This document shows positions 26,277 through 41,284 of a stretch of DNA of 64,000 nucleotides, piece by piece. Origin of the DNA: Escherichia coli (GTDB lineage Bacteria > Pseudomonadota > Gammaproteobacteria > Enterobacterales > Enterobacteriaceae); the NCBI RefSeq assembly GCF_024502345.1, contig NZ_JALDNN010000001.1; one strand, written 5' to 3'. The position numbers and the translations under genes were made by a program. The notes under the pieces were generated by a model that had not been told where the DNA came from, ran no database searches, and was given only the letters and a program-made list of their open reading frames with translations. The first letter of the stretch is position 1. Each line of letters opens with the position of its first letter.

Positions 26277-28742
<2,466 letters not shown>

Positions 28743-28758
28743 GTTCACCAATAAATAG

Positions 28759-28785
28759 AACGGGGCCAAAGGGTCCCGTTTTTTT
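28759..28785 (+). terminator. Rho-independent terminator after glgP
   Basis: 9-bp stem (aacggggcc / ggtcccgtt, one G-U pair) followed by a 7-T run. Confidence 0.7.
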
Positions 28786-28835
28786 CCGCCATCATTTCGG
28801 AAAAGTGTCCAGAAGGGGCAAGGGGACTCGGGGAG

Positions 28836-28841
28836 TATAAT
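28836..28841 (+). promoter_or_regulatory. Candidate -10 hexamer (TATAAT) upstream of the first islet gene
   Basis: Perfect tataat about 18 nt upstream of ATG 28859; no convincing -35. Speculative. Confidence 0.2.
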
Positions 28842-28858
28842 TTCACCATTCAAAAAGA

Positions 28859-30376
28859 ATGGAAAGAATAATGCAAAACAGAAAATGGATTTTGTCCTCG
28901 CTGGTAATGACTTTTTTCGGCATCCCCATACTGACGCAATTTTTGGCGGCGGTTGTTGCTATGCTGGGTGTCGGACTTGCCGGTATTATTGAAGTTTGTA
29001 ATATCCTTATCACGCCAACAAGTTACCTTCTGCTCAACATTTTTATGCTGGCGCTGGGCGCATTAATGCTATTTTTCTCGGGGCGAGTATGGGCAGGCGA
29101 TAGTGCACCAGAAAAAAGAGAAATAGCCGTCTGGCGACAATGTCTTTTTTTAGTACCCGGTTTATTAATCCTGGTTGGCTGGATAATCGCGCTGCATCTG
29201 GCAGATTATCAATTTCACCAGATGGGATCGGGTTGGTTGGCTGATCTTATGCTCCCCTGGCTGGGCGTTTTGTTAGTCTCAGTAGTCGGAGGTGAGTACT
29301 GGTGGATAGTCATTATACCCGTTGGCGCGCATATCAGTTTTTCGCTGGGGTACGGCCGGCCAACCAGACATCCTTTAACCGGTACATCCGGGCTACGTTG
29401 CCGTAATTCCCTCCTGTTTATCCTTCTCATGCTTGGTTTTGTCGCTGGTTATCAGGGTTATTTATATAAACAGCTCAATCCCGGCGTCGGTGTGCGCGAA
29501 AATATTGATACCTGGGCCTGGCGACCCGATAAACTCAATAATCAACTGACACCACTGCGTGGTAAACCGCAAATTCAGTTTACGCAAAACTGGCCGCGAC
29601 TCGATGGTGCTACGGCGGCGTACCCAATTTATGCCTCTGCATTTTATGCTTTAAGCGTTATACCGGAAGATTTTCACACCAGGGAATATCTGGAGAGCTC
29701 TCGTACCCCCGATGCGTATAACAGGATTGTTAAAGGTGATGCTGATAGTATTTTTGTGGCGCAACCTTCCGGTGGGCAGAAAAAACGCGCTGAGGAATCG
29801 GGCGTTACTTTGCTGTACACGCCTTTTGCCCGTGAAGCGTTTGTTTTCATCGTCAATGCGGATAATCCGGTTAATTCCCTGACTGAACAACAGGTGCGTG
29901 ACATCTTCAGTGGTGCAATTACCAACTGGCGTACTGTTGGCGGTAACGATCAGGAGATCCAGACCTGGCAACGCCCGGAAGACTCTGGTAGCCAGACGGT
30001 GATGCAATCCCAGGTCATGAAAAATGTCCGCATGATCTCGCCGCAGGAAACAGAAGTGGCAAGTATGATGGAGGGAATGATTAAAGTCGTTGCCGAATAC
30101 CGTAATACAAACAACTCAATAGGTTACACCTTCCGTTATTACGCAACACAAATGAACGCCGATAAAAATATAAAACTGCTAGCGATTAACGGTATTGCAC
30201 CGACTGCCGAAAACATTCGCAACGGCAAATATCCCTATATCGTCGATGCCTTTATGGTAACGCGGGAAAATACGATGTCAGAGACACAAAAATTGTTGGA
30301 GTGGTTTTTAACGCCGCAGGGACAGAGTTTGGTGGAAGATGTAGGTTATGTCCCGATGTATAAGACGCTACCTTAA
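28859..30376 (+). CDS. Membrane-anchored protein: N-terminal polytopic domain fused to a C-terminal PstS-fold periplasmic-binding-protein-like domain; function unknown
   Basis: 505 aa. Residues 1 to about 190 contain several hydrophobic helices. The C-terminal half carries PstS-family motifs (LTEQQVRDIFSGAITNWRTVGG; RPEDSGSQ; IGYTFRYY; LLAINGIAPTAENIRNGKYPY; VGYVPMY). Alternative start ATG 28871. As I recall, K-12 keeps only a short pseudogene remnant (yzgL) at this position. Confidence 0.8.
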   Translation: MERIMQNRKWILSSLVMTFFGIPILTQFLAAVVAMLGVGLAGIIEVCNILITPTSYLLLNIFMLALGALMLFFSGRVWAGDSAPEKREIAVWRQCLFLVPGLLILVGWIIALHLADYQFHQMGSGWLADLMLPWLGVLLVSVVGGEYWWIVIIPVGAHISFSLGYGRPTRHPLTGTSGLRCRNSLLFILLMLGFVAGYQGYLYKQLNPGVGVRENIDTWAWRPDKLNNQLTPLRGKPQIQFTQNWPRLDGATAAYPIYASAFYALSVIPEDFHTREYLESSRTPDAYNRIVKGDADSIFVAQPSGGQKKRAEESGVTLLYTPFAREAFVFIVNADNPVNSLTEQQVRDIFSGAITNWRTVGGNDQEIQTWQRPEDSGSQTVMQSQVMKNVRMISPQETEVASMMEGMIKVVAEYRNTNNSIGYTFRYYATQMNADKNIKLLAINGIAPTAENIRNGKYPYIVDAFMVTRENTMSETQKLLEWFLTPQGQSLVEDVGYVPMYKTLP

Positions 30377-30460
30377 AGCTGGATAATAAAAATGGAATTA
30401 GTTAATACATTATTTGCAAGCCTTGCCGGTACTGATCCCTTCACAGGCGTGGATATTACG

Positions 30461-30469
30461 ATTGCCAAC
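30461..30469. repeat. 9-bp target-site duplication (left copy) attgccaac
   Basis: Identical to 31527..31535, directly flanking the IS termini. Confidence 0.85.
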
Positions 30470-30487
30470 GGCTTTGTTGAATAAATC
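30470..30487. repeat. IS903 terminal inverted repeat (18 bp)
   Basis: ggctttgttgaataaatc; exact reverse complement is found at 31509..31526. Confidence 0.9.
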
Positions 30488-30525
30488 AGATTTCGGGTAA
30501 GTCTCCCCCGTAGCGGGTTGTGTTT

Positions 30526-31449
30526 TCAGGCAATACGCACGCTTTCAGGCATACCTGCTTTCGTCATTTTGTTCAGCGCTCGTACCAGGGCCATAGCCTC
30601 TGCAACCTGACCATCGTAGTCACGCAGTGTCAGTGAACCCCCGAACAGCTGTTTTACCCGGTACATCGCCGTTTCCGCTATCGAGCGACGGTTGTAATCT
30701 GTTGTCCATTTCCACCGCGCATTACTCCCGGTCATTCGCTGATTAGCCACTGCACGGTTACGGTCTGCATATTCACCGGGCCAGTAACCCGCACCTTTTC
30801 GGGGAGGGATAAGCGCGCTGATTTTCTTACGCCGCAGTTCATCGTGACATAGCCGGGTATCGTAAGCGCCATCGGCGGCGGCTGACCTGATTTTCCGGTG
30901 GGTTTGCCGGATTAACCCGGGGAAGGCCTCTGAGTCCGTAACGTTGTTCAGCGACAGGTCAGCGCAGATGATTTCATGTGTTTTACTGTCAACGGCGAGA
31001 TGCAGCTTACGCCAGATACGGCGGCGTTCCTGGCCATGCTTTTTGACTTTCCACTCGCCTTCACCGAAGACCTTCAGCCCGGTGGAATCAATTACCAGGT
31101 GTGCGATTTCACCCCGGGTGGGCGTTTTGAAACTGACATTAACCGACTTTGCCCGCCTGCTGACACAGCTGTAATCCGGGCAGCGTAGCGGAACGTTCAT
31201 CAGAGAAAAAATGGAATCAATAAAGCCCTGCGCAGCGCGCAGGGTCAGCCTGAATACGCGTTTAATGACCAGCACAGTCGTGATGGCAAGGTCAGAATAG
31301 CGCTGAGGTCTGCCTCGTGAAGAAGGTGTTGCTGACTCATACCAGGCCTGAATAGCTTCATCATCCAGCCAGAAAGTTATGGAGCCACGGTTGATGAGGG
31401 CTTTATTGTAGGTGGGCCAGTTGGTGATTTTGAACTTTTGCTTTGCCAC
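30526..31449 (-). CDS. IS903 transposase (DDE, IS5 family)
   Basis: ORF track 30526..31494 (TTG); probable GTG start at 31449 giving 307 aa beginning MAKQKFKITNWPTYNKALINRGS..., which matches my recollection of the IS903 transposase; also ...LVIDSTGLKVFGEGEWKVKKHG.... Confidence 0.9.
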   Translation of the reverse strand: MAKQKFKITNWPTYNKALINRGSITFWLDDEAIQAWYESATPSSRGRPQRYSDLAITTVLVIKRVFRLTLRAAQGFIDSIFSLMNVPLRCPDYSCVSRRAKSVNVSFKTPTRGEIAHLVIDSTGLKVFGEGEWKVKKHGQERRRIWRKLHLAVDSKTHEIICADLSLNNVTDSEAFPGLIRQTHRKIRSAAADGAYDTRLCHDELRRKKISALIPPRKGAGYWPGEYADRNRAVANQRMTGSNARWKWTTDYNRRSIAETAMYRVKQLFGGSLTLRDYDGQVAEAMALVRALNKMTKAGMPESVRIA

Positions 31450-31508
31450 GGAACGGTCTGCGTTGTCGGGAAGATACGTGATCTGATCCTTCAACTCAGC
31501 AAAAGTTC

Positions 31509-31526
31509 GATTTATTCAACAAAGCC
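31509..31526. repeat. IS903 terminal inverted repeat (18 bp, other end)
   Basis: gatttattcaacaaagcc = reverse complement of 30470..30487. Confidence 0.9.
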
Positions 31527-31535
31527 ATTGCCAAC
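31527..31535. repeat. 9-bp target-site duplication (right copy) attgccaac
   Basis: Identical to 30461..30469. Confidence 0.85.
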
Positions 31536-32170
31536 TGCAAATCGGCATACTGGGATGAAGGCATTGTTCAGCAACTTATTAACCAGGCCCTGGATGAAGG
31601 GGAAAAGTTCGTCGGTGCTGACGGTCTTGAGGGATTGCTTCGATATGATGTCACATTAAATATTGGCTTAACCTCCAGCAAGGTATGGCCGGGATTTTCC
31701 CTCGATACCGCCACCATTAGCCGTCTTTGTGCCTGTGGTGCTGATTTTGGATTTGACCCCTATATCAGTGATGTACCAGATGTTCAATGTGACCTGAACA
31801 CGACAAATGACGTCACCGTACAATTTACGGCGATGCTAAATCCGGATGAGCGGGTGATAATAGCAAAGCGCCCGCTTAAAAAATGTGACTCCTGGATTGA
31901 GGATGTCTATATCTTTCAGGTCTTAAAAGATGCCTGGAAATTTCATAACAATAACAGTTTACGCGGATTTCGCGATAAGCAGGCCGAACTGAAACTCTAC
32001 ACGCGTCATTACTCAGTGGAAAATTGCGCAGAGGAAAGCTGTCGAGACTGCAATAGTTGCATTCGCCCCAGCTTTTCCCTTTCGCGTAGCGCCCTTATTC
32101 GCCTGAACGCGGCGAATGCTCGTTTTGTCTATCAACCGTTTACACGCGATCAGCGGGCGAGGGGGTAACT

Positions 32171-32938
32171 ATGCAACCCAGCCCTGCCATGCAGGCATTA
32201 ATTGAGCAGATTTATCACACCTTTCGTCGTTATCGGGTGCCGCAGAAATTTGTGGTTTGTTGTGAATATTGCCTGAGTCAGCAGGAACAAAAGGCATTAC
32301 GGAGTACATCGTTACGAGCGATCCCGTATTCCTTAATCAATGCCTGGAATAGTAGCCCAGGGCCTGATCCGCAAAATAGCGATGAGGTCCGCTATTTTCT
32401 GCCGCGTTTACTGGAATTTGTTGCACAGGGGCATTTTGACAATATTCACGTAGTTTTTTCTCTGCGCCGTATCAACCTTGCCAACAAAGAAAACTGGCGT
32501 GCGGATGAACGGGCAATTTTACAGCGATTTGCCTGCCAGTATATGACTGATTGGGTATCCGGCGATGAAGCTGTCGAATTACAGTATATGCTGGAAATGT
32601 TTTTCCGTGCCGATATCGCTCTTGCGCCATTGCTGGATGCCATTAATTCAGTTCCCGGCTTTTGGTCGACCGTTTCTCTTGCCTGTTTATTGAACAGATA
32701 TTGTGAGGATTATATCAGAGATAACCAGGACGATATCGATAACGCCATTACCACCCAAATCAATGCCTGGGCTAGAAATAATCATCCTTTACTGAAAGAA
32801 AGAGCGCGGCAAGCGATTGAGAACCCGCTAAAACAGCCCGAACCAATGACAGAATATCATGTCTGGGAAGATGACTGGATAATTGATGAGTGTTTATGCG
32901 CGATGTATGACGCATCATCCGAATCACCAGGAAAATAA
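32171..32938 (+). CDS. Third islet gene, hypothetical protein (255 aa), no recognisable motif
   Basis: ORF starts 2 nt after the stop of the preceding gene; soluble-looking; no family recognised by eye. Confidence 0.7.
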   Translation: MQPSPAMQALIEQIYHTFRRYRVPQKFVVCCEYCLSQQEQKALRSTSLRAIPYSLINAWNSSPGPDPQNSDEVRYFLPRLLEFVAQGHFDNIHVVFSLRRINLANKENWRADERAILQRFACQYMTDWVSGDEAVELQYMLEMFFRADIALAPLLDAINSVPGFWSTVSLACLLNRYCEDYIRDNQDDIDNAITTQINAWARNNHPLLKERARQAIENPLKQPEPMTEYHVWEDDWIIDECLCAMYDASSESPGK

Positions 32939-32940
32939 AA

Positions 32941-33546
32941 ATGATTAAATTCCGGCTTTATATTCCCCCTGTAATTCTCGGTTTTGTTATCGTGCCATTA
33001 TTGGTATGGCCGACGGTTATTGTCTTAGCCGTACTTATATTCACGTTAACTTTTCTGGCAGAAATAATATTCTCCTTTCCGCTCCTGGTTGTACGTATTT
33101 CTCTTCAGGAATTACAACTTGAGTTAATGGTTGAATATGCACTTTTTTTCAGTGTAATGGCTGGCATCGGTTGGCAATTCTCCCGCAGAACGCCTCCTGA
33201 ATTAAAAAACAGACTGCATTGCTGGCTGGTCTTTTCGCCGGTCTATTTCTGGTTAATTCTCTCGAATTTCATTCTTTATATTTCTCCAGAGAAATCAGCG
33301 TTGCTGGAAAATATCCGAAATTTCTTTCTGACGTTTGTCTGGCCTCCCCTGAATTTTTCCCCTTTTTGGCCGCAGCCTTGGACTGATTTTGTCGGCCCGA
33401 TTAGTGCACAGCTTGGTTTTGCATTGGGATATTATTGCCATTGGTGCAGAAAAAATAGAAACCAGAGGAAGAAGTGGGGCGATTGGGTAACGTGCTTAAG
33501 TTTGGCGATTTTAGCTCAGGGGCCGTTATTCAATTATTTACAATGA
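32941..33546 (+). CDS. Fourth islet gene, small multi-pass membrane protein (201 aa), function unknown
   Basis: ORF starts 2 nt after the stop of the third gene; several hydrophobic segments (VILGFVIVPLLVWPTVIVLAVLIFTLTFLAEIIF; WLVFSPVYFWLILSNFILYI); lowest G+C of the islet by eye. Confidence 0.7.
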   Translation: MIKFRLYIPPVILGFVIVPLLVWPTVIVLAVLIFTLTFLAEIIFSFPLLVVRISLQELQLELMVEYALFFSVMAGIGWQFSRRTPPELKNRLHCWLVFSPVYFWLILSNFILYISPEKSALLENIRNFFLTFVWPPLNFSPFWPQPWTDFVGPISAQLGFALGYYCHWCRKNRNQRKKWGDWVTCLSLAILAQGPLFNYLQ

Positions 33547-33567
33547 ATAGTCTAAGGAATCCAAATA

Positions 33568-33590
33568 GCCCGGTTGCACTTCAACCGGGC
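33568..33590. terminator. Perfect hairpin between the convergent islet operon and glpD
   Basis: Stem gcccggttg / caaccgggc (9 bp) with 5-nt loop; lies between the stop of the fourth islet gene (33546) and the glpD stop (33598); no strong U-tract. Confidence 0.45.
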
Positions 33591-33597
33591 ATCATCC

Positions 33598-35103
33598 TTA
33601 CGACGCCAGCGACAACTTCTGCTGCGTATATTCCACCAGCCACTGACTCACACGAGATTGTTGATCCGCATTCAGCCACATGCCTTGTTTTGTGCGACGC
33701 CAAAGGGCATCGTCGGTGCGGCGGACCCATTCGTGATCCACCAGGTATTTCAGTTCCGCTTCGTAGAACTCATGACCGAAATCCTCCCCGAGGTCGCTTA
33801 TCGCCCCCGCATTGCCGAGCAGCAGCTCGCTGTTGCTGCCGTAAGTGCGTGCGTAATGACGCGCCAGCGATTCAGTCAGGAATGGATAGCGACGGCGCAG
33901 ACGAGCTGCGTAATCGTCGCGGTCGCCTTCAATGGCACCACCCGGCAGCACGCTCTCTTTCGTCCATGCCGGGCCAATGCCCTGATAATACGGCGTCAGT
34001 TTTTCCAGCGCATGTTCCGCCAGTTTGCGGTAGGTGGTCAACTTACCGCCGAATACCGACAGCAGCGGTGCTTTGCCGTTTTCATCATGGATATCAAGGG
34101 TGTAATCACGGGTAATAGCCTGCGGCGAGTCGGACTCATCATCACACAGCGGACGCACACCGGAGTAGGTCCAGACGATATCGTCACGGCTTAACTGCTT
34201 TTTAAAGTGCGTGTTATACACTTTCAGCAGGTAATTGATTTCACTCTCTTCAATCTTCACCGCTTTCGGATCGCCTTTGTATTCCACATCGGTGGTGCCG
34301 ATGATGGAAAACTCGTCCATCCACGGGATCACGAACACAATGCGTTTATCTTCGTTTTGCAGAATGTAGGCCTGCTTTTGGGTATGCACGCGCGGCACCA
34401 CAATATGGCTGCCTTTGATCAGGCGAATGCCATAAGGCGAAGGCAGATGCATCCCGTCGTCGAAGAACTGTTTCACCCACGGGCCGGTGGCGTTAACCAA
34501 GCCGCGCGCTTGCCAGCTATATTTTTTGCCGGTATCGATATCTTCCGCTTCCACAATCCACAGGCCGTTTTCGCGGCGAGCAGAGGTGGCGCGAGTCCGA
34601 GTAAGCACTTCGCCGCCTTTACGCACCACCATCTGGGCGTTGGCGAGTACCAGACGGGCGTCGTCTACCCAACAGTCAGAATATTCGAATCCGCGCTTAA
34701 TTTCCGGTTTTAACACTGAATTTGCGCCAAAACGCAAACCGGTTGATCCCGGCAGGCTGGTGCGTTTACCCAGATGATCGTACATAAACAGACCAATGCG
34801 AATCATCCACGCCGGGCGCAGATGCGGACGATGTGGCAGGCGAAAACGCATCGGGAAGGCGATATGCGGAGCCATTTTCAGCAGCACTTCACGTTCAGCC
34901 AGCGCCTCGCTGACCAGGCGGAATTCATAGTGCTCAAGGTAGCGCAGGCCACCGTGAATGAGTTTTGAACTGGCGGAAGAGGTCGCGCAAGCGAGATCCT
35001 GCGCCTCCAGCATCAGCACGGATAAACCGCGTCCAGCGGCGTCTGCCGCGATACCAGCACCATTGATGCCGCCACCTATCACAATCAGATCTTTGGTTTC
35101 CAT
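33598..35103 (-). CDS. glpD: Aerobic sn-glycerol-3-phosphate dehydrogenase
   Basis: ORF track 33598..35118; start set at ATG 35103 (METKDLIVIGGGINGAGIA...), 501 aa; FAD-binding GGGINGAG. Confidence 0.95.
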   Translation of the reverse strand: METKDLIVIGGGINGAGIAADAAGRGLSVLMLEAQDLACATSSASSKLIHGGLRYLEHYEFRLVSEALAEREVLLKMAPHIAFPMRFRLPHRPHLRPAWMIRIGLFMYDHLGKRTSLPGSTGLRFGANSVLKPEIKRGFEYSDCWVDDARLVLANAQMVVRKGGEVLTRTRATSARRENGLWIVEAEDIDTGKKYSWQARGLVNATGPWVKQFFDDGMHLPSPYGIRLIKGSHIVVPRVHTQKQAYILQNEDKRIVFVIPWMDEFSIIGTTDVEYKGDPKAVKIEESEINYLLKVYNTHFKKQLSRDDIVWTYSGVRPLCDDESDSPQAITRDYTLDIHDENGKAPLLSVFGGKLTTYRKLAEHALEKLTPYYQGIGPAWTKESVLPGGAIEGDRDDYAARLRRRYPFLTESLARHYARTYGSNSELLLGNAGAISDLGEDFGHEFYEAELKYLVDHEWVRRTDDALWRRTKQGMWLNADQQSRVSQWLVEYTQQKLSLAS

Positions 35104-35214
35104 GCTGCCCTCATTCACTTTCGTTAAAGCTCATAAATGTTCGTTATCGAACATATTAGCAAAGAATCGCCCTTTAGGTAACATTGAAAAAACATTTTAG
35201 AGTGATATGTATAA

Positions 35215-36510: not shown

Positions 36511-37269
36511 ATGAAACAAACACAACGTCACAACGGTATTATCGAACTGGTTAAACAGCAGGGTTATGTCAGTACTGAAGAGCTGGTAGAGCATTTCTCC
36601 GTCAGCCCGCAGACTATTCGCCGCGACCTCAATGAGCTGGCGGAGCAAAACCTGATCCTGCGTCACCATGGCGGTGCGGCGCTGCCTTCCAGTTCGGTTA
36701 ACACGCCGTGGCACGATCGTAAAGCCACCCAGACCGAAGAAAAAGAGCGTATTGCCCGCAAAGTGGCGGAGCAAATCCCCAACGGCTCGACGCTGTTTAT
36801 CGATATCGGCACCACCCCGGAAGCGGTGGCGCACGCGCTGCTTAATCACAGCAATTTGCGCATTGTCACCAACAATCTCAACGTCGCTAACACGTTGATG
36901 GTAAAAGAAGATTTTCGCATTATTCTCGCCGGTGGCGAATTACGTAGCCGCGATGGTGGGATCATAGGTGAAGCGACGCTCGATTTTATCTCCCAGTTCC
37001 GCCTTGATTTCGGCATTCTGGGGATAAGCGGCATCGATAGCGACGGCTCGCTGCTGGAGTTCGATTACCACGAAGTTCGCACCAAACGCGCCATTATTGA
37101 GAACTCGCGCCACGTTATGCTGGTTGTCGATCACTCGAAATTTGGCCGTAACGCGATGGTCAATATGGGCAGCATCAGCATGGTAGATGCCGTCTACACC
37201 GACGCCCAGCCGCCAGTAAGCGTGATGCAGGTGCTGACGGACCACCATATTCAACTGGAGCTGTGCTGA
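36511..37269 (+). CDS. glpR: glp regulon repressor (DeoR family)
   Basis: 252-aa ORF; DeoR-type HTH (RHNGIIELVKQQGYVSTEELVEHF); its 3' end overlaps the rtcR 3' end by 19 bp (convergent). Confidence 0.95.
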   Translation: MKQTQRHNGIIELVKQQGYVSTEELVEHFSVSPQTIRRDLNELAEQNLILRHHGGAALPSSSVNTPWHDRKATQTEEKERIARKVAEQIPNGSTLFIDIGTTPEAVAHALLNHSNLRIVTNNLNVANTLMVKEDFRIILAGGELRSRDGGIIGEATLDFISQFRLDFGILGISGIDSDGSLLEFDYHEVRTKRAIIENSRHVMLVVDHSKFGRNAMVNMGSISMVDAVYTDAQPPVSVMQVLTDHHIQLELC

Positions 37270-38849
37270 TCCTGCAATGCTTCCCAGGTCAGACCAAAAC
37301 GCGCCAGGTATTTGCGTAGCCGATCCGCGTCATTGACGCTGGCTTTGCCCTGGCGCGAAACATCAAAAAGCTGTCGTCCGGCAGCAGAAAGCGACTTTGC
37401 CTGGCGGCAGATAGCGATAACGTGTTCCAGTTGCATACGGTCGAAGAGATCGATGTTTTCTGCCTCTGCGCCCAGCAACGCCGTAAGCGCGGAGGGGCGG
37501 CTCTCCTGCCAGTTAAAGCGCAGACGGTTTATCTCATCTTCAACCACGTCCAGAGTAATGCGTCCGCTAGAGGCAAAGGTTGCCATTCGCGTGACGCTGG
37601 CAGAAAGCTCGCGAAAGTTACCGCGCCATGTTGCCTGGGGAGATGTCGCAAAGGCCAGCCAGGCGCGCCGCGCTTCGGTGTTAAAACGCACGCTGTCGCC
37701 GGTGAGTGAAGCGTGGCGCTCCACTTCATAATCCAGGTTAGGTTCAATATCTTCCTGGCGCTGGCGTAGCCCCGGCAGGGTGAAGGTCCAGAGATTGATC
37801 CGCGCGTACAGGTCTTCGCGAAATTTTCCTTCGGCAACCAGCTGGCGCAAATCACGCACCGTTCCGGCGATAAGCTGAAAATCACTGCTCACCTGGCGAT
37901 CGCTGCCAAACGGATAAAAGGTTTTTTCTTCAATGGCTTTAAGCAGCATTGCCTGTTCGTCTGCGCCCAGTTCGCCAATCTCATCAAGAAACAACATTCC
38001 ACCGTTGGCGCTACGTAATAATCCTTCACGGGATTCCCGCGCCCCGGTAAACGCGCCTTTTACATGACCAAACAGCGTCGACATGGCGGTATCGCCGCGC
38101 AGGGTTGCGCAGTTCACTTCCACAAACGCGCCGCTAAACTGATGCCGCGCCTGTTTTAATTCAAATATACGTCGCGCCAGAAATGACTTGCCCGCACCGG
38201 TTGGGCCGTTTAGCAGGATCGGTGCGCGGGATTTAATCGCCACTTTTTCAATCTGCTCAATCATGCGGTTGAAGTGCGGGTTACGCGTGGCAATGCCGGA
38301 CTTAAGAAAATCAAGCGTTTGCTGGCGTTCCTCGGCAAAGCGGCTGGCGATGGCGTTATAACGGCTTAAATCGAGATCGATAATCGTCACTTCACCTGCG
38401 CCGCGCGGCTGTTCTTTTTTGCGCGGAGGTGAAGATTGTATCAACCGGGCGGGCAGGTAACGCGCTTCCGCCAGCAGAAACCAGCAAATCTGCGCGACGT
38501 GGGTGCCGGTGGTGATGTGAATTAAATAGTCTTCTTTTTCTGGCTGAAACTCGTAACCACGGGCGAAATCATGCAGGCAGGCGTAAACCTCTTCGAAATC
38601 CCACGGGTTATGCAGTTCAATCTCAACGCTCACCACTTCTGTTTCTGGCGAAACGCTGGCGATATCGCGTTTAAGCGTTTCAAATAGCGAGCGCGAGCGG
38701 GCGTCATGCAATAATTCCAGTCGATCGATGACCAACGATTCTTGCTGGCATAAACAGAGTGTCGGACGCCATTTCGACCAGCGCTGACTGCCGCGCCCGG
38801 CATAATCCAGCACCGTTCCGACAAAGCCAAAAGCCACTGTTTTACGCAT
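37251..38849 (-). CDS. rtcR: Sigma54-dependent transcriptional activator of rtcBA
   Basis: 532-aa ORF; AAA+ sigma54-interaction motifs (GPTGAGKS; GAFTGA); divergent from rtcBA. Confidence 0.9.
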
Positions 38850-38983
38850 CTTAGATATCCTTATAAAAGACGATATTTCATTATCGGTGAATTGGTTTTG
38901 TGGAAAATCTCCGTTTACGGACGTAAAGATTTAACCTATTTAAAAACAATGAATTAAAAAATTAATCTGCTTATTTAATTTTC

Positions 38984-38999
38984 TGGCACGACGGTTGCA
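38984..38999 (+). promoter_or_regulatory. Sigma54 (-24/-12) promoter for rtcBA
   Basis: tggcacgacggttgca = TGGCAC-N5-TTGCA consensus, about 40 bp upstream of the rtcB ATG. Confidence 0.65.
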
Positions 39000-39037
39000 A
39001 TTATCACGACAGCAAACAACGAAAAGAGAAAAACAAA

Positions 39038-40264
39038 ATGAATTACGAATTACTGACCACTGAAAATGCCCCGGTAAAAATGTGGACCAAAGGCGTGCCG
39101 GTAGAAGCCGATGCGCGTCAGCAACTTATTAATACGGCGAAGATGCCGTTTATTTTCAAACATATTGCGGTAATGCCTGATGTACACCTGGGTAAAGGTT
39201 CCACCATTGGTAGCGTGATCCCGACCAAAGGGGCGATTATTCCGGCGGCGGTGGGCGTGGATATTGGCTGTGGAATGAACGCGCTGCGTACCGCGTTAAC
39301 GGCGGCAGACCTGCCTGAAAACCTGGCAGAGCTGCGTCAGGCGATTGAAACTGCGGTGCCGCACGGACGTACCACTGGCCGTTGTAAACGTGATAAAGGC
39401 GCATGGGAAAACCCGCCTGTTAACGTCGATGCGAAATGGGCTGAGCTTGAAGCCGATTATCAGTGGTTAACGCAAAAATATCCGCGTTTCCTTAACACTA
39501 ACAACTATAAACACCTGGGAACGCTGGGAACGGGTAACCACTTTATTGAAATCTGCCTTGATGAGTCGGACCAGGTGTGGATTATGCTGCACTCCGGTTC
39601 ACGCGGAATTGGTAACGCCATCGGGACTTACTTTATCGATTTGGCACAAAAAGAGATGCAGGACCAGCTTGAAACGTTGCCATCGCGCGACCTGGCGTAC
39701 TTTATGGAAGGTACGGAATACTTTGATGATTACCTAAGAGCCGTGGCCTGGGCGCAGCTTTTCGCCAGCCTTAACCGCGATGCGATGATGGAAAACGTGG
39801 TAACGGCGTTGCAGAGCATTACGCAGAAAACGGTCAGACAGCCACAAACGCTGGCGATGGAAGAGATCAACTGTCACCACAACTATGTGCAAAAAGAACA
39901 GCACTTTGGTGAAGAGATCTACGTGACGCGTAAAGGCGCGGTGTCTGCGCGTGCTGGTCAATATGGAATTATTCCCGGTTCGATGGGAGCAAAAAGCTTT
40001 ATCGTCCGTGGGCTGGGAAATGAAGAGTCGTTCTGTTCGTGCAGCCACGGTGCCGGGCGGGTAATGAGCCGTACTAAAGCGAAAAAACTGTTCAGCGTGG
40101 AAGATCAAATTCGTGCTACCGCGCATGTGGAATGCCGTAAAGATGCCGAAGTGATCGACGAAATCCCGATGGCGTATAAAGATATTGATGCGGTGATGGC
40201 GGCACAAAGCGATCTGGTGGAAGTTATCTACACCCTGCGTCAGGTGGTGTGCGTAAAAGGATAA
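39038..40264 (+). CDS. rtcB: RNA-splicing ligase RtcB
   Basis: 408-aa ORF recalled as RtcB; divergent from rtcR. Confidence 0.95.
   Translation: MNYELLTTENAPVKMWTKGVPVEADARQQLINTAKMPFIFKHIAVMPDVHLGKGSTIGSVIPTKGAIIPAAVGVDIGCGMNALRTALTAADLPENLAELRQAIETAVPHGRTTGRCKRDKGAWENPPVNVDAKWAELEADYQWLTQKYPRFLNTNNYKHLGTLGTGNHFIEICLDESDQVWIMLHSGSRGIGNAIGTYFIDLAQKEMQDQLETLPSRDLAYFMEGTEYFDDYLRAVAWAQLFASLNRDAMMENVVTALQSITQKTVRQPQTLAMEEINCHHNYVQKEQHFGEEIYVTRKGAVSARAGQYGIIPGSMGAKSFIVRGLGNEESFCSCSHGAGRVMSRTKAKKLFSVEDQIRATAHVECRKDAEVIDEIPMAYKDIDAVMAAQSDLVEVIYTLRQVVCVKG

Positions 40265-41284
<1,020 letters not shown>

Follow-up and report, generated by a model that had tools for sequence, protein, structure and literature searches.

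Many Escherichia coli chromosomes carry additional genes between glgP and glpD, and the question that they raise is whether these genes make up one device and what such a device could do. Here, this question is taken up for a 64,000-nt stretch of E. coli contig NZ_JALDNN010000001.1 (assembly GCF_024502345.1), referred to below as the window, in which four open reading frames (ORFs) on the + strand, named g1 to g4, span positions 28859-33546 of the glgP-glpD gap according to the ORF listing of the window. Roughly 60% of complete E. coli genomes carry the cluster, including those of O157:H7, O104:H4 and sequence type (ST) 131. The locus has escaped study because K-12 keeps only a chimeric stump of it, the pseudogene yzgL, and in the literature on yzgL or the glgP-glpD region we found no treatment of g1-g4 function. 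The gap itself is on record as a variable region (GR 24 glpD..glgP in PMC12928451; Hotspot A in PMC13185298), which in extraintestinal and avian pathogenic E. coli (ExPEC and APEC) can be occupied by the auf fimbrial operon (PMC12928451; PMC13185298).

The answer developed below is that the gap holds a genuine accessory locus, widespread but so far uncharacterised, with two points of interest: a membrane domain, termed X, whose paralogous copies in g1 and g4 go together with a binding domain that is fused in one case and split in another, and the unnamed protein family to which g3 belongs. Judged from the sequences, the recurrent E. coli core of the locus is a pair of predicted inner-membrane proteins that share X, with interchangeable genes in between.

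A membrane pair with a PstS-type binding domain

The product of g1 (28859-30376, + strand; 505 aa) consists of an N-terminal membrane domain and a C-terminal binding domain. Its C-terminal ~280 aa (residues ~226-505) constitute a PstS-family periplasmic binding domain of class II, which matches Pfam PBP_like_2 (PF12849) at 1.8e-29 over residues 249-485 and the phosphate-binding (PstS) proteins of the PDB at ~1e-17. The match to TIGR02136 (5.4e-34) scores 117.7 bits, short of the curated cut-off of 206.6 bits, and its alignment covers profile positions 102-295, that is, the C-lobe only. Within this region, the RPEDSGSQ of g1 aligns with the R(E/N)xxSGT of 4q8r, 4gd5, 4n13 and 1twy, and the RxxxSG[ST] anion loop is retained. 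In E. coli PstS, this loop binds phosphate. Searches of Pfam, NCBIfam, PADLOC, PHROGs and PDB sequences bore out the expectation of the preliminary description of this stretch that, of the four products, the first alone contains a domain that can be recognised, namely the PstS-type one.

The N-terminal ~215 aa of g1 contain ~7 hydrophobic or transmembrane (TM) segments by hydropathy and match no family. The earlier view of g1 as a membrane-anchored binding domain thus stands as regards the binding domain, whereas "anchored" understates the matter: the membrane part is a conserved ~7-TM domain and more than a plain anchor.

The same domain appears to recur at the other end of the locus. The g4 gene (32941-33546, + strand) encodes a polytopic membrane protein of 201 aa that gave no match in Pfam, NCBIfam, PADLOC, PHROGs or PDB sequences, and whose relatives are confined to Escherichia. 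When the g1 membrane domain (alignment A3) was compared with the g4 family (A2) by hhalign, the two were matched with a probability of 94% and an E value of 1.4e-7 over 161 columns, while reversed-sequence controls gave probabilities of 0.3-0.5%. Three collinear motifs underlie the match (KWIL..PIL in g1 and RLYI..PLL in g4; GRVW..SAPE and GWQF..TPPE; IPVxAxISFSLGY and GPISAQLGFALGY), and a hidden Markov model (HMM) built from g1 membrane domains alone matches a g4 homologue with 33% identity to g4 at 34.5-35.1 bits. By these alignments, g4 is a distant, free-standing paralogue of the g1 N-terminal membrane domain, and this domain, X, is a previously undescribed module of a predicted ~7 TM segments. 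The small polytopic membrane protein that had been described as an unrelated fourth part of the locus is therefore, on the hhalign result, a paralogue of a domain of the first. The positive-inside pattern of g4 is at odds with a strict 7-TM alignment to g1, in a crude hydropathy analysis that does not fix the topology.

In O157:H7, the gene immediately before that of a free X protein encodes a lipoprotein (lipobox LAGC) with 58% identity to the g1 binding domain; X and the binding domain thus occur both fused and split.

Known systems offer partial likenesses. With PstSCAB, the C-terminal 280 aa of g1 share the PstS fold family and the anion loop. Unlike that system, which has the permeases PstC/PstA and the ATPase PstB, g1-g4 lack these components, and the g1 binding domain is fused to an unrelated ~7-TM module instead of carrying a signal peptide or lipid anchor. 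Pfam searches returned no ABC_tran or BPD_transp hit in g1-g4, and the gene neighbours are glgP and glpD, in agreement with the earlier remark that the locus does not resemble a canonical ATP-binding cassette (ABC) transporter, there being no ATPase or ABC permease among the four products. The TRAP (DctPQM) and TTT (TctABC) systems, which combine a periplasmic binding protein with membrane subunits and have no ATPase, can be likened to the g1/g4 pair in concept only: in sequence, nothing in g1-g4 resembles DctQ/DctM or TctA/TctB, the binding domain belongs to the PstS type and not to the DctP or TctC type, and no DctQ/DctM, TctA/TctB, DctP- or TctC-type Pfam hit was obtained in g1-g4 even at E<=10.

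Modular composition and selection

The locus was then followed through 5426 complete E. coli genomes. The g1 segment is present over at least 80% of its length in 3345 of these (~60%) and at least in part in 4800; g2 is present in 2327, and the segment comprising the 3' part of g2, g3 and g4 is covered to at least 80% in 2278. The g3/g4 region is matched in 3337, a figure that omits many O157-type g4 alleles, which megablast misses. All copies are chromosomal and lie at the glgP-glpD site.

Three forms are common. Form A (g1/g2/g3/g4) is that of the window, O39:NM and O104:H4. Form B (g1, a second PstS-family lipoprotein and a g4-like gene) is found in O157:H7 and accounts for 885 of the 5426 genomes. 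Form C (g1/g3/g4) is that of ST131. All three hold g1 and g4. A fourth, form D, is restricted to two of the 5426 genomes and comprises ten genes: g1, the PstS lipoprotein, an 87-aa protein, a 154-aa secreted protein, g2, two g3 paralogues (g3a and g3b), g4, an ankyrin-repeat protein (350 aa) and a Zn-ribbon protein (144 aa). E. coli 2020CK-00188 (L061, 1471-9355) provides an example of it. Derivatives also occur, among them an IS1 insertion with a deletion in HUM3355, a g3-g4 fusion in MOD1-EC7003, and g1 alone. The preliminary description presented the four genes as one operon and named a lack of conservation as a unit as grounds for refutation. In fact, g2, g3, g4 and the second PstS lipoprotein occur in every combination downstream of g1; on those grounds, a single fixed four-gene system fails, and the operon of the window represents just one version of a modular cluster.

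The K-12 type retains only the first 346 nt of the region (window 28743-29088), as the pseudogene yzgL (L004, 3126-3615). In the alignment, yzgL is a chimera that passes from ~77 g1 codons straight into the final ~22 of an O157-type g4 (…WGEWGTCLSFVTLGMMAWALR), with repeat elements behind it. K-12 therefore derives from form B through a single deletion. Comparison of genomes and alignment with the K-12 locus thereby upheld the preliminary description on two counts, the strain-variable nature of the site and the yzgL remnant in K-12. The region upstream of g1 is retained in yzgL, and yzgL (b3427) appears at -2.0 in a table of the CpxR regulon (PMC2731931), which indicates that the 5' region is transcribed in K-12.

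Outside E. coli, the genes differ in their range. A scan of one genome per species across ~100,000 species with two peptide patterns, which very distant relatives could escape, placed g1 in just two genera, Escherichia (coli, albertii, whittamii and as yet unnamed species) and Pseudocitrobacter (53% identity), always at glgP-glpD. Searches for a plasmid or phage origin by tblastn against plasmids, viral contigs and PHROGs gave nothing except a mislabelled chromosome. A 3.2-kb metagenomic contig (L011, 1-3257) carries a g2-like/g3-like/g4-like trio in the same order at 54%, 49% and 33% identity, respectively; it lies downstream not of g1, but of a superfamily-1 helicase-type gene with a nuclease-like C-terminal region.

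Intact alleles are under purifying selection in every gene. By the method of Nei and Gojobori, the ratio of nonsynonymous to synonymous divergence (omega) is 0.15-0.21 for g1, 0.08 for g2, 0.08-0.19 for g3 and 0.23-0.29 for g4, as compared with 0.02-0.04 for the flanking glgP and 0.02-0.06 for glpD. When E. coli alleles are compared with one another, synonymous divergence (dS) amounts to 0.26-0.39 in g1 and as much as 0.82 in g4; in glgP it is 0.03. Omega values of 0.08-0.29 at a dS of up to 0.82, set against 0.03 in glgP, mark the alleles as old and selected rather than junk. On the right flank, the dS of glpD between E. coli lineages (0.15-0.22, vs 0.03 for glgP) partly shares this deep divergence, which may have arisen through recombination or hitch-hiking.

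The cytoplasmic proteins g2 and g3

The two genes between the membrane pair encode cytoplasmic proteins for which Pfam, NCBIfam, PADLOC, PHROGs and PDB sequences yielded nothing usable. The g3 product (32171-32938, + strand; 255 aa) is all-alpha and belongs to a very large uncharacterised family. Its close relatives are found in Escherichia and Shigella. A profile search of 1.84 billion cluster representatives, clustered at 50% identity, retrieved 2592 clusters at E<=1e-3 (a lower bound), 1515 of them at E<=1e-10, from many phyla. The best 150 matches are mostly single-domain proteins of 230-270 aa; no Pfam domain was found in any of 58 sampled members, and no meaningful NCBIfam match in any of ten. 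The fold is predicted with confidence (AlphaFold2 predicted local distance difference test, pLDDT, 91) and has no solved relative. In the family alignment (A4), F18 and P78 are invariant and Y15, C30, C34, L77, R79, E82, W109, E113 and W200 nearly so. Six contexts of distant homologues show g3 as a solitary gene beside unrelated housekeeping or hypothetical genes and no toxins, on which ground the idea of g3 as part of an immunity island was rejected. In an enterobacterial genome (L006/L007, 8001-9586), two g3 paralogues of 262 and 261 aa, which share 41% and 52% identity with g3, stand in tandem between aldo-keto reductase and ampC-type beta-lactamase genes, without g1, g2 or g4.

By comparison, the g2 family is narrow, extending over Escherichia, Pseudocitrobacter (70-72% identity) and one 54%-identical homologue; scans of viral contigs and metagenomes found no relatives more distant than these, the metagenomes giving E. 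coli-like loci only. The PGAP label "YbbD family" was discarded: NF007301 matches g2 with only 22.6 bits (E 6e-5) over 43 N-terminal residues, as against a cut-off of 373 bits, and the likeness to YbbD, a K-12 pseudogene of the RhsD element, is limited to this match. In K-12, ybbD follows the Rhs fragment ylbH in that element. The idea of g2 as an Rhs-linked orphan immunity protein was rejected as well, since a tblastn search of the ybbD region of K-12, with g2 and its homologues as queries, detected no similarity. The N-terminal domain of g2 gave real but weak matches to deaminase-like (CDA) folds from a model that is poor overall (pLDDT 57). The H/CxE and PCxxC zinc motifs are absent from the g2 alignment, and the candidate Cys residues are not conserved, some homologues having other residues in place of C91 or of C93; the likeness to deaminases is therefore recorded as an observation only. 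The Cys-rich character noted earlier is not a trait of the family, as the C-terminal Cys cluster is missing in the 54%-identical homologue; a metal site at this unconserved cluster was accordingly dismissed. Some database entries name g2/g3 fragments (P0160; A0ABD7MP04; A0A376PPI3) in ways that no g2 or g3 family search supports, for example "N-acetyldiaminopimelate deacetylase", "Fimbrial protein" and "Membrane protein ATP binding protein of ABC transporter".

Proposed function and alternatives

What, then, could the locus do? We tentatively propose, as a possibility suggested by domain content and gene arrangement, that a membrane pair with a tethered binding domain imports or senses an oxyanion without an ATPase, assisted by optional cytoplasmic accessories. 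The X domains of g1 and g4 would assemble in the inner membrane as a hetero-oligomer with 12-14 TM segments. A tethered or lipoprotein binding domain would catch a phosphate-like oxyanion in the periplasm and pass it to the X unit, which would then either import the ligand without an ATPase, as TRAP and TTT systems do, or relay a transmembrane signal; g2 and g3 would be dispensable accessories in the cytoplasm. Several observations favour such a device: the tight spacing of the genes; a PstS-type domain with its anion loop; the absence from all four genes of an ATPase and of an ABC, TRAP or TTT membrane domain; the wide occurrence of full-length g1 and of the g3/g4 region in E. coli; the homology between g4 and the membrane part of g1, the fused and split arrangements of X and the binding domain, and the retention of both g1 and g4 in the common forms; purifying selection; and the persistence of the g2-g3-g4 order at 54/49/33% identity in an unrelated context.

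Other observations weigh against it. The binding domain diverges in its N-lobe and reaches only about half of the TIGR02136 cut-off. In searches of family collections and PDB sequences, no known transporter or sensor could be recognised as related to X. Because g1 occurs without g4, in Pseudocitrobacter (g1/g2/g3) and in one E. coli strain, a g1/g4 heteromer cannot be obligatory. Moreover, g2, g3 and g4 are each found without the others; since they are separable, and since relatives of g3 elsewhere are solitary, the cluster may not be one machine. Finally, the locus is often deleted or struck by insertion sequences (ISs). A wider claim would be that g1 and g4 represent a new class of binding-protein-coupled membrane device, in which two paralogous ~7-TM domains unrelated to ABC, TRAP or TTT components take a ligand from a tethered PstS-like domain and either transport it or signal; the g3 family would then be a widespread, unnamed kind of cytoplasmic protein whose ligand-binding or active site is conserved. 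We consider this claim unlikely at present. Should the core act as in the proposal above, binding proteins would gain a new partner in the membrane, and there would be a handle on two families that lack any annotation, namely X and that of g3.

The main rival holds that the gap is a hotspot of recombination and deletion, filled with independent cassettes, for example orphan immunity or conflict genes, each acting alone and with no joint function. All combinations of presence and absence downstream of g1 are what such a hotspot would leave behind; form D adds tandem g3 paralogues and ankyrin-repeat, Zn-ribbon and small secreted proteins, tandem g3 paralogues stand alone at another locus, the G+C of the island is low and its alleles are very old, and the literature lists the gap as variable and able to hold the auf operon. 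Indeed, modular cassettes, tandem paralogues, low G+C and patchiness, along with the ankyrin-repeat protein of the largest variant, are likenesses to the orphan immunity arrays of polymorphic toxin systems. The cluster differs from such arrays in having no toxin, toxin remnant, integrase or Imm/SUKH/SMI1 family: neither the window nor variants A-D nor the distant g3 contexts showed an adjacent toxin or toxin fragment or a Pfam Imm, SUKH or SMI1 match, and the contexts examined held no recombinase and no Pfam immunity family. Furthermore, independent cassettes would not lead one to expect that g4 is paralogous to the membrane domain of g1 itself, that the g2-g3-g4 order is kept at 33-54% identity in a different context, or that g3 has near-invariant residues across phyla, unlike typical fast-evolving immunity proteins. 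On balance, we regard independent cassettes as somewhat unlikely. Were they nonetheless what the gap holds, the locus would offer a natural series of deletion variants in which to follow the decay of accessory genes in a hotspot.

The PstS-family domain of g1, with its conserved C-lobe and anion loop, can also be read differently: in a locus without a cognate permease or ATPase, g1 and the O157 lipoprotein might be extra binding proteins for the housekeeping PstCAB encoded elsewhere, and the other genes passengers. This is improbable, given the TIGR02136 score of 117.7 bits (cut-off 206.6) and divergent N-lobe motifs, the fusion of the binding domain to a conserved and selected ~7-TM domain, and the paralogue of that domain that travels alongside.

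Similarly improbable is a new system of anti-phage or other defence, built from a membrane sensor and cytoplasmic effectors, a role that the preliminary description had floated and that PADLOC does not support for g1-g4. The patchy distribution, the hotspot site, the low G+C, the old balanced alleles, the weak deaminase-like fold at the N-terminus of g2 and the helicase-type gene ahead of the divergent g2-g3-g4 trio are all in keeping with defence. Against this, PADLOC-DB 2.0 returned no match at E<=1 for g1, g3 or g4 and only CARF3 at 0.019 for g2, and it matches the ankyrin protein of form D through its repeats alone; there is no nuclease, NTPase or other effector domain, g2 lacks the Zn-site motifs of deaminases and has a model with a pLDDT of 57, and the phage and plasmid collections held nothing.

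That the locus is a decaying remnant without current function is very improbable, as frequent deletions, fusions and IS hits (K-12 yzgL, IS1 in HUM3355, the g3-g4 fusion in MOD1-EC7003 and IS903B in the window) are outweighed by omega values that stay at 0.08-0.29 across dS values extending to saturation, comparisons between genera among them, and by ORFs kept open in thousands of genomes.

An IS903B insertion in g2

The operon of this particular strain is interrupted by a recently acquired, plasmid-type IS903B. The element, a 1057-bp member of the IS5 family with inverted ends, occupies 30470-31526 on the - strand and is bounded by a 9-bp target duplication, ATTGCCAAC, at 30461-30469 and 31527-31535. 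Its transposase ORF (30526-31494, - strand; 322 aa, IS5 family) matches NCBIfam NF033579 at 6e-107 (357 bits), and annotated IS903B copies on plasmids of Citrobacter, Salmonella and E. coli match the element at 100% identity; it probably hopped in from a plasmid. Because the junction between IS903B and g2 is found in none of the 5426 complete E. coli genomes, the insertion appears to be recent and private to this strain.

As a result, g2 is split into a 5' fragment of codons 1-26 (30392-30469, + strand) and a 3' fragment (31527-32168, + strand) that begins with the second copy of the duplication and continues with codons 27-236 (31536-32168). Once the element is taken out together with one of the duplicate copies, a frame of 236 aa ending at 32168 is recovered, and its product shares 99.6% identity with WP_000424543.1, which is intact in strain F8704-2. 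Thus, g2 is inactivated by IS903B in this copy. Polarity of the insertion is also likely to lower the expression of g3 and g4, since both lie downstream of 1 kb of inserted DNA whose transposase is on the opposite strand.

Boundaries, composition and signals

With g2 reconstructed in this way, the intergenic gaps from g1 to g4 are 15, 2 and 2 nt, as had been stated for the four co-directional ORFs. The island lies between glgP (26295-28742, + strand) and the convergent glpD (33598-35118, - strand). Its lower G+C, earlier judged by eye, was confirmed by computation: 0.472 for g1, 0.471 for g2, 0.454 for g3 and 0.416 for g4, or 0.458 for the island without the IS, compared with 0.509 for glgP, 0.552 for glpD and 0.519 for the whole window.

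Just 3' of the glgP stop codon, a terminator-like hairpin (ACGGGGCC..GGTCCCGT, then T7; 28760-28786, + strand) was recognised by eye; it has one stem mismatch, and a consensus scan made no call there. This hairpin sets the island apart from the glg operon. At the right edge of the island, the consensus scan detected a terminator-like hairpin of the convergent glpD (33568-33590, - strand) with a 9-bp stem that contains seven GC pairs. Upstream of g1, a perfect TATAAT hexamer (28836-28841, + strand), also identified by eye, is a candidate -10 element 18 nt before the first g1 ATG, with no good -35; a promoter consensus scan found no significant site upstream of g1 and did not call the hexamer, and no Pho-box-like sequence was seen there by eye. 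An Rfam scan of 28600-33750 yielded no RNA family and hence no riboswitch. The start of g1 is ambiguous between ATG 28859, position 28868 (the choice of PGAP in relatives) and ATG 28871; judged by eye, the GGA-type ribosome-binding site of the last is the better one.

Further downstream, window positions 37251-41284 carry rtcR (- strand), rtcB and rtcA. A dip in G+C at 38.5-39.2 kb coincides with the 5' end of rtcR and the adjoining intergenic region, and is ordinary.

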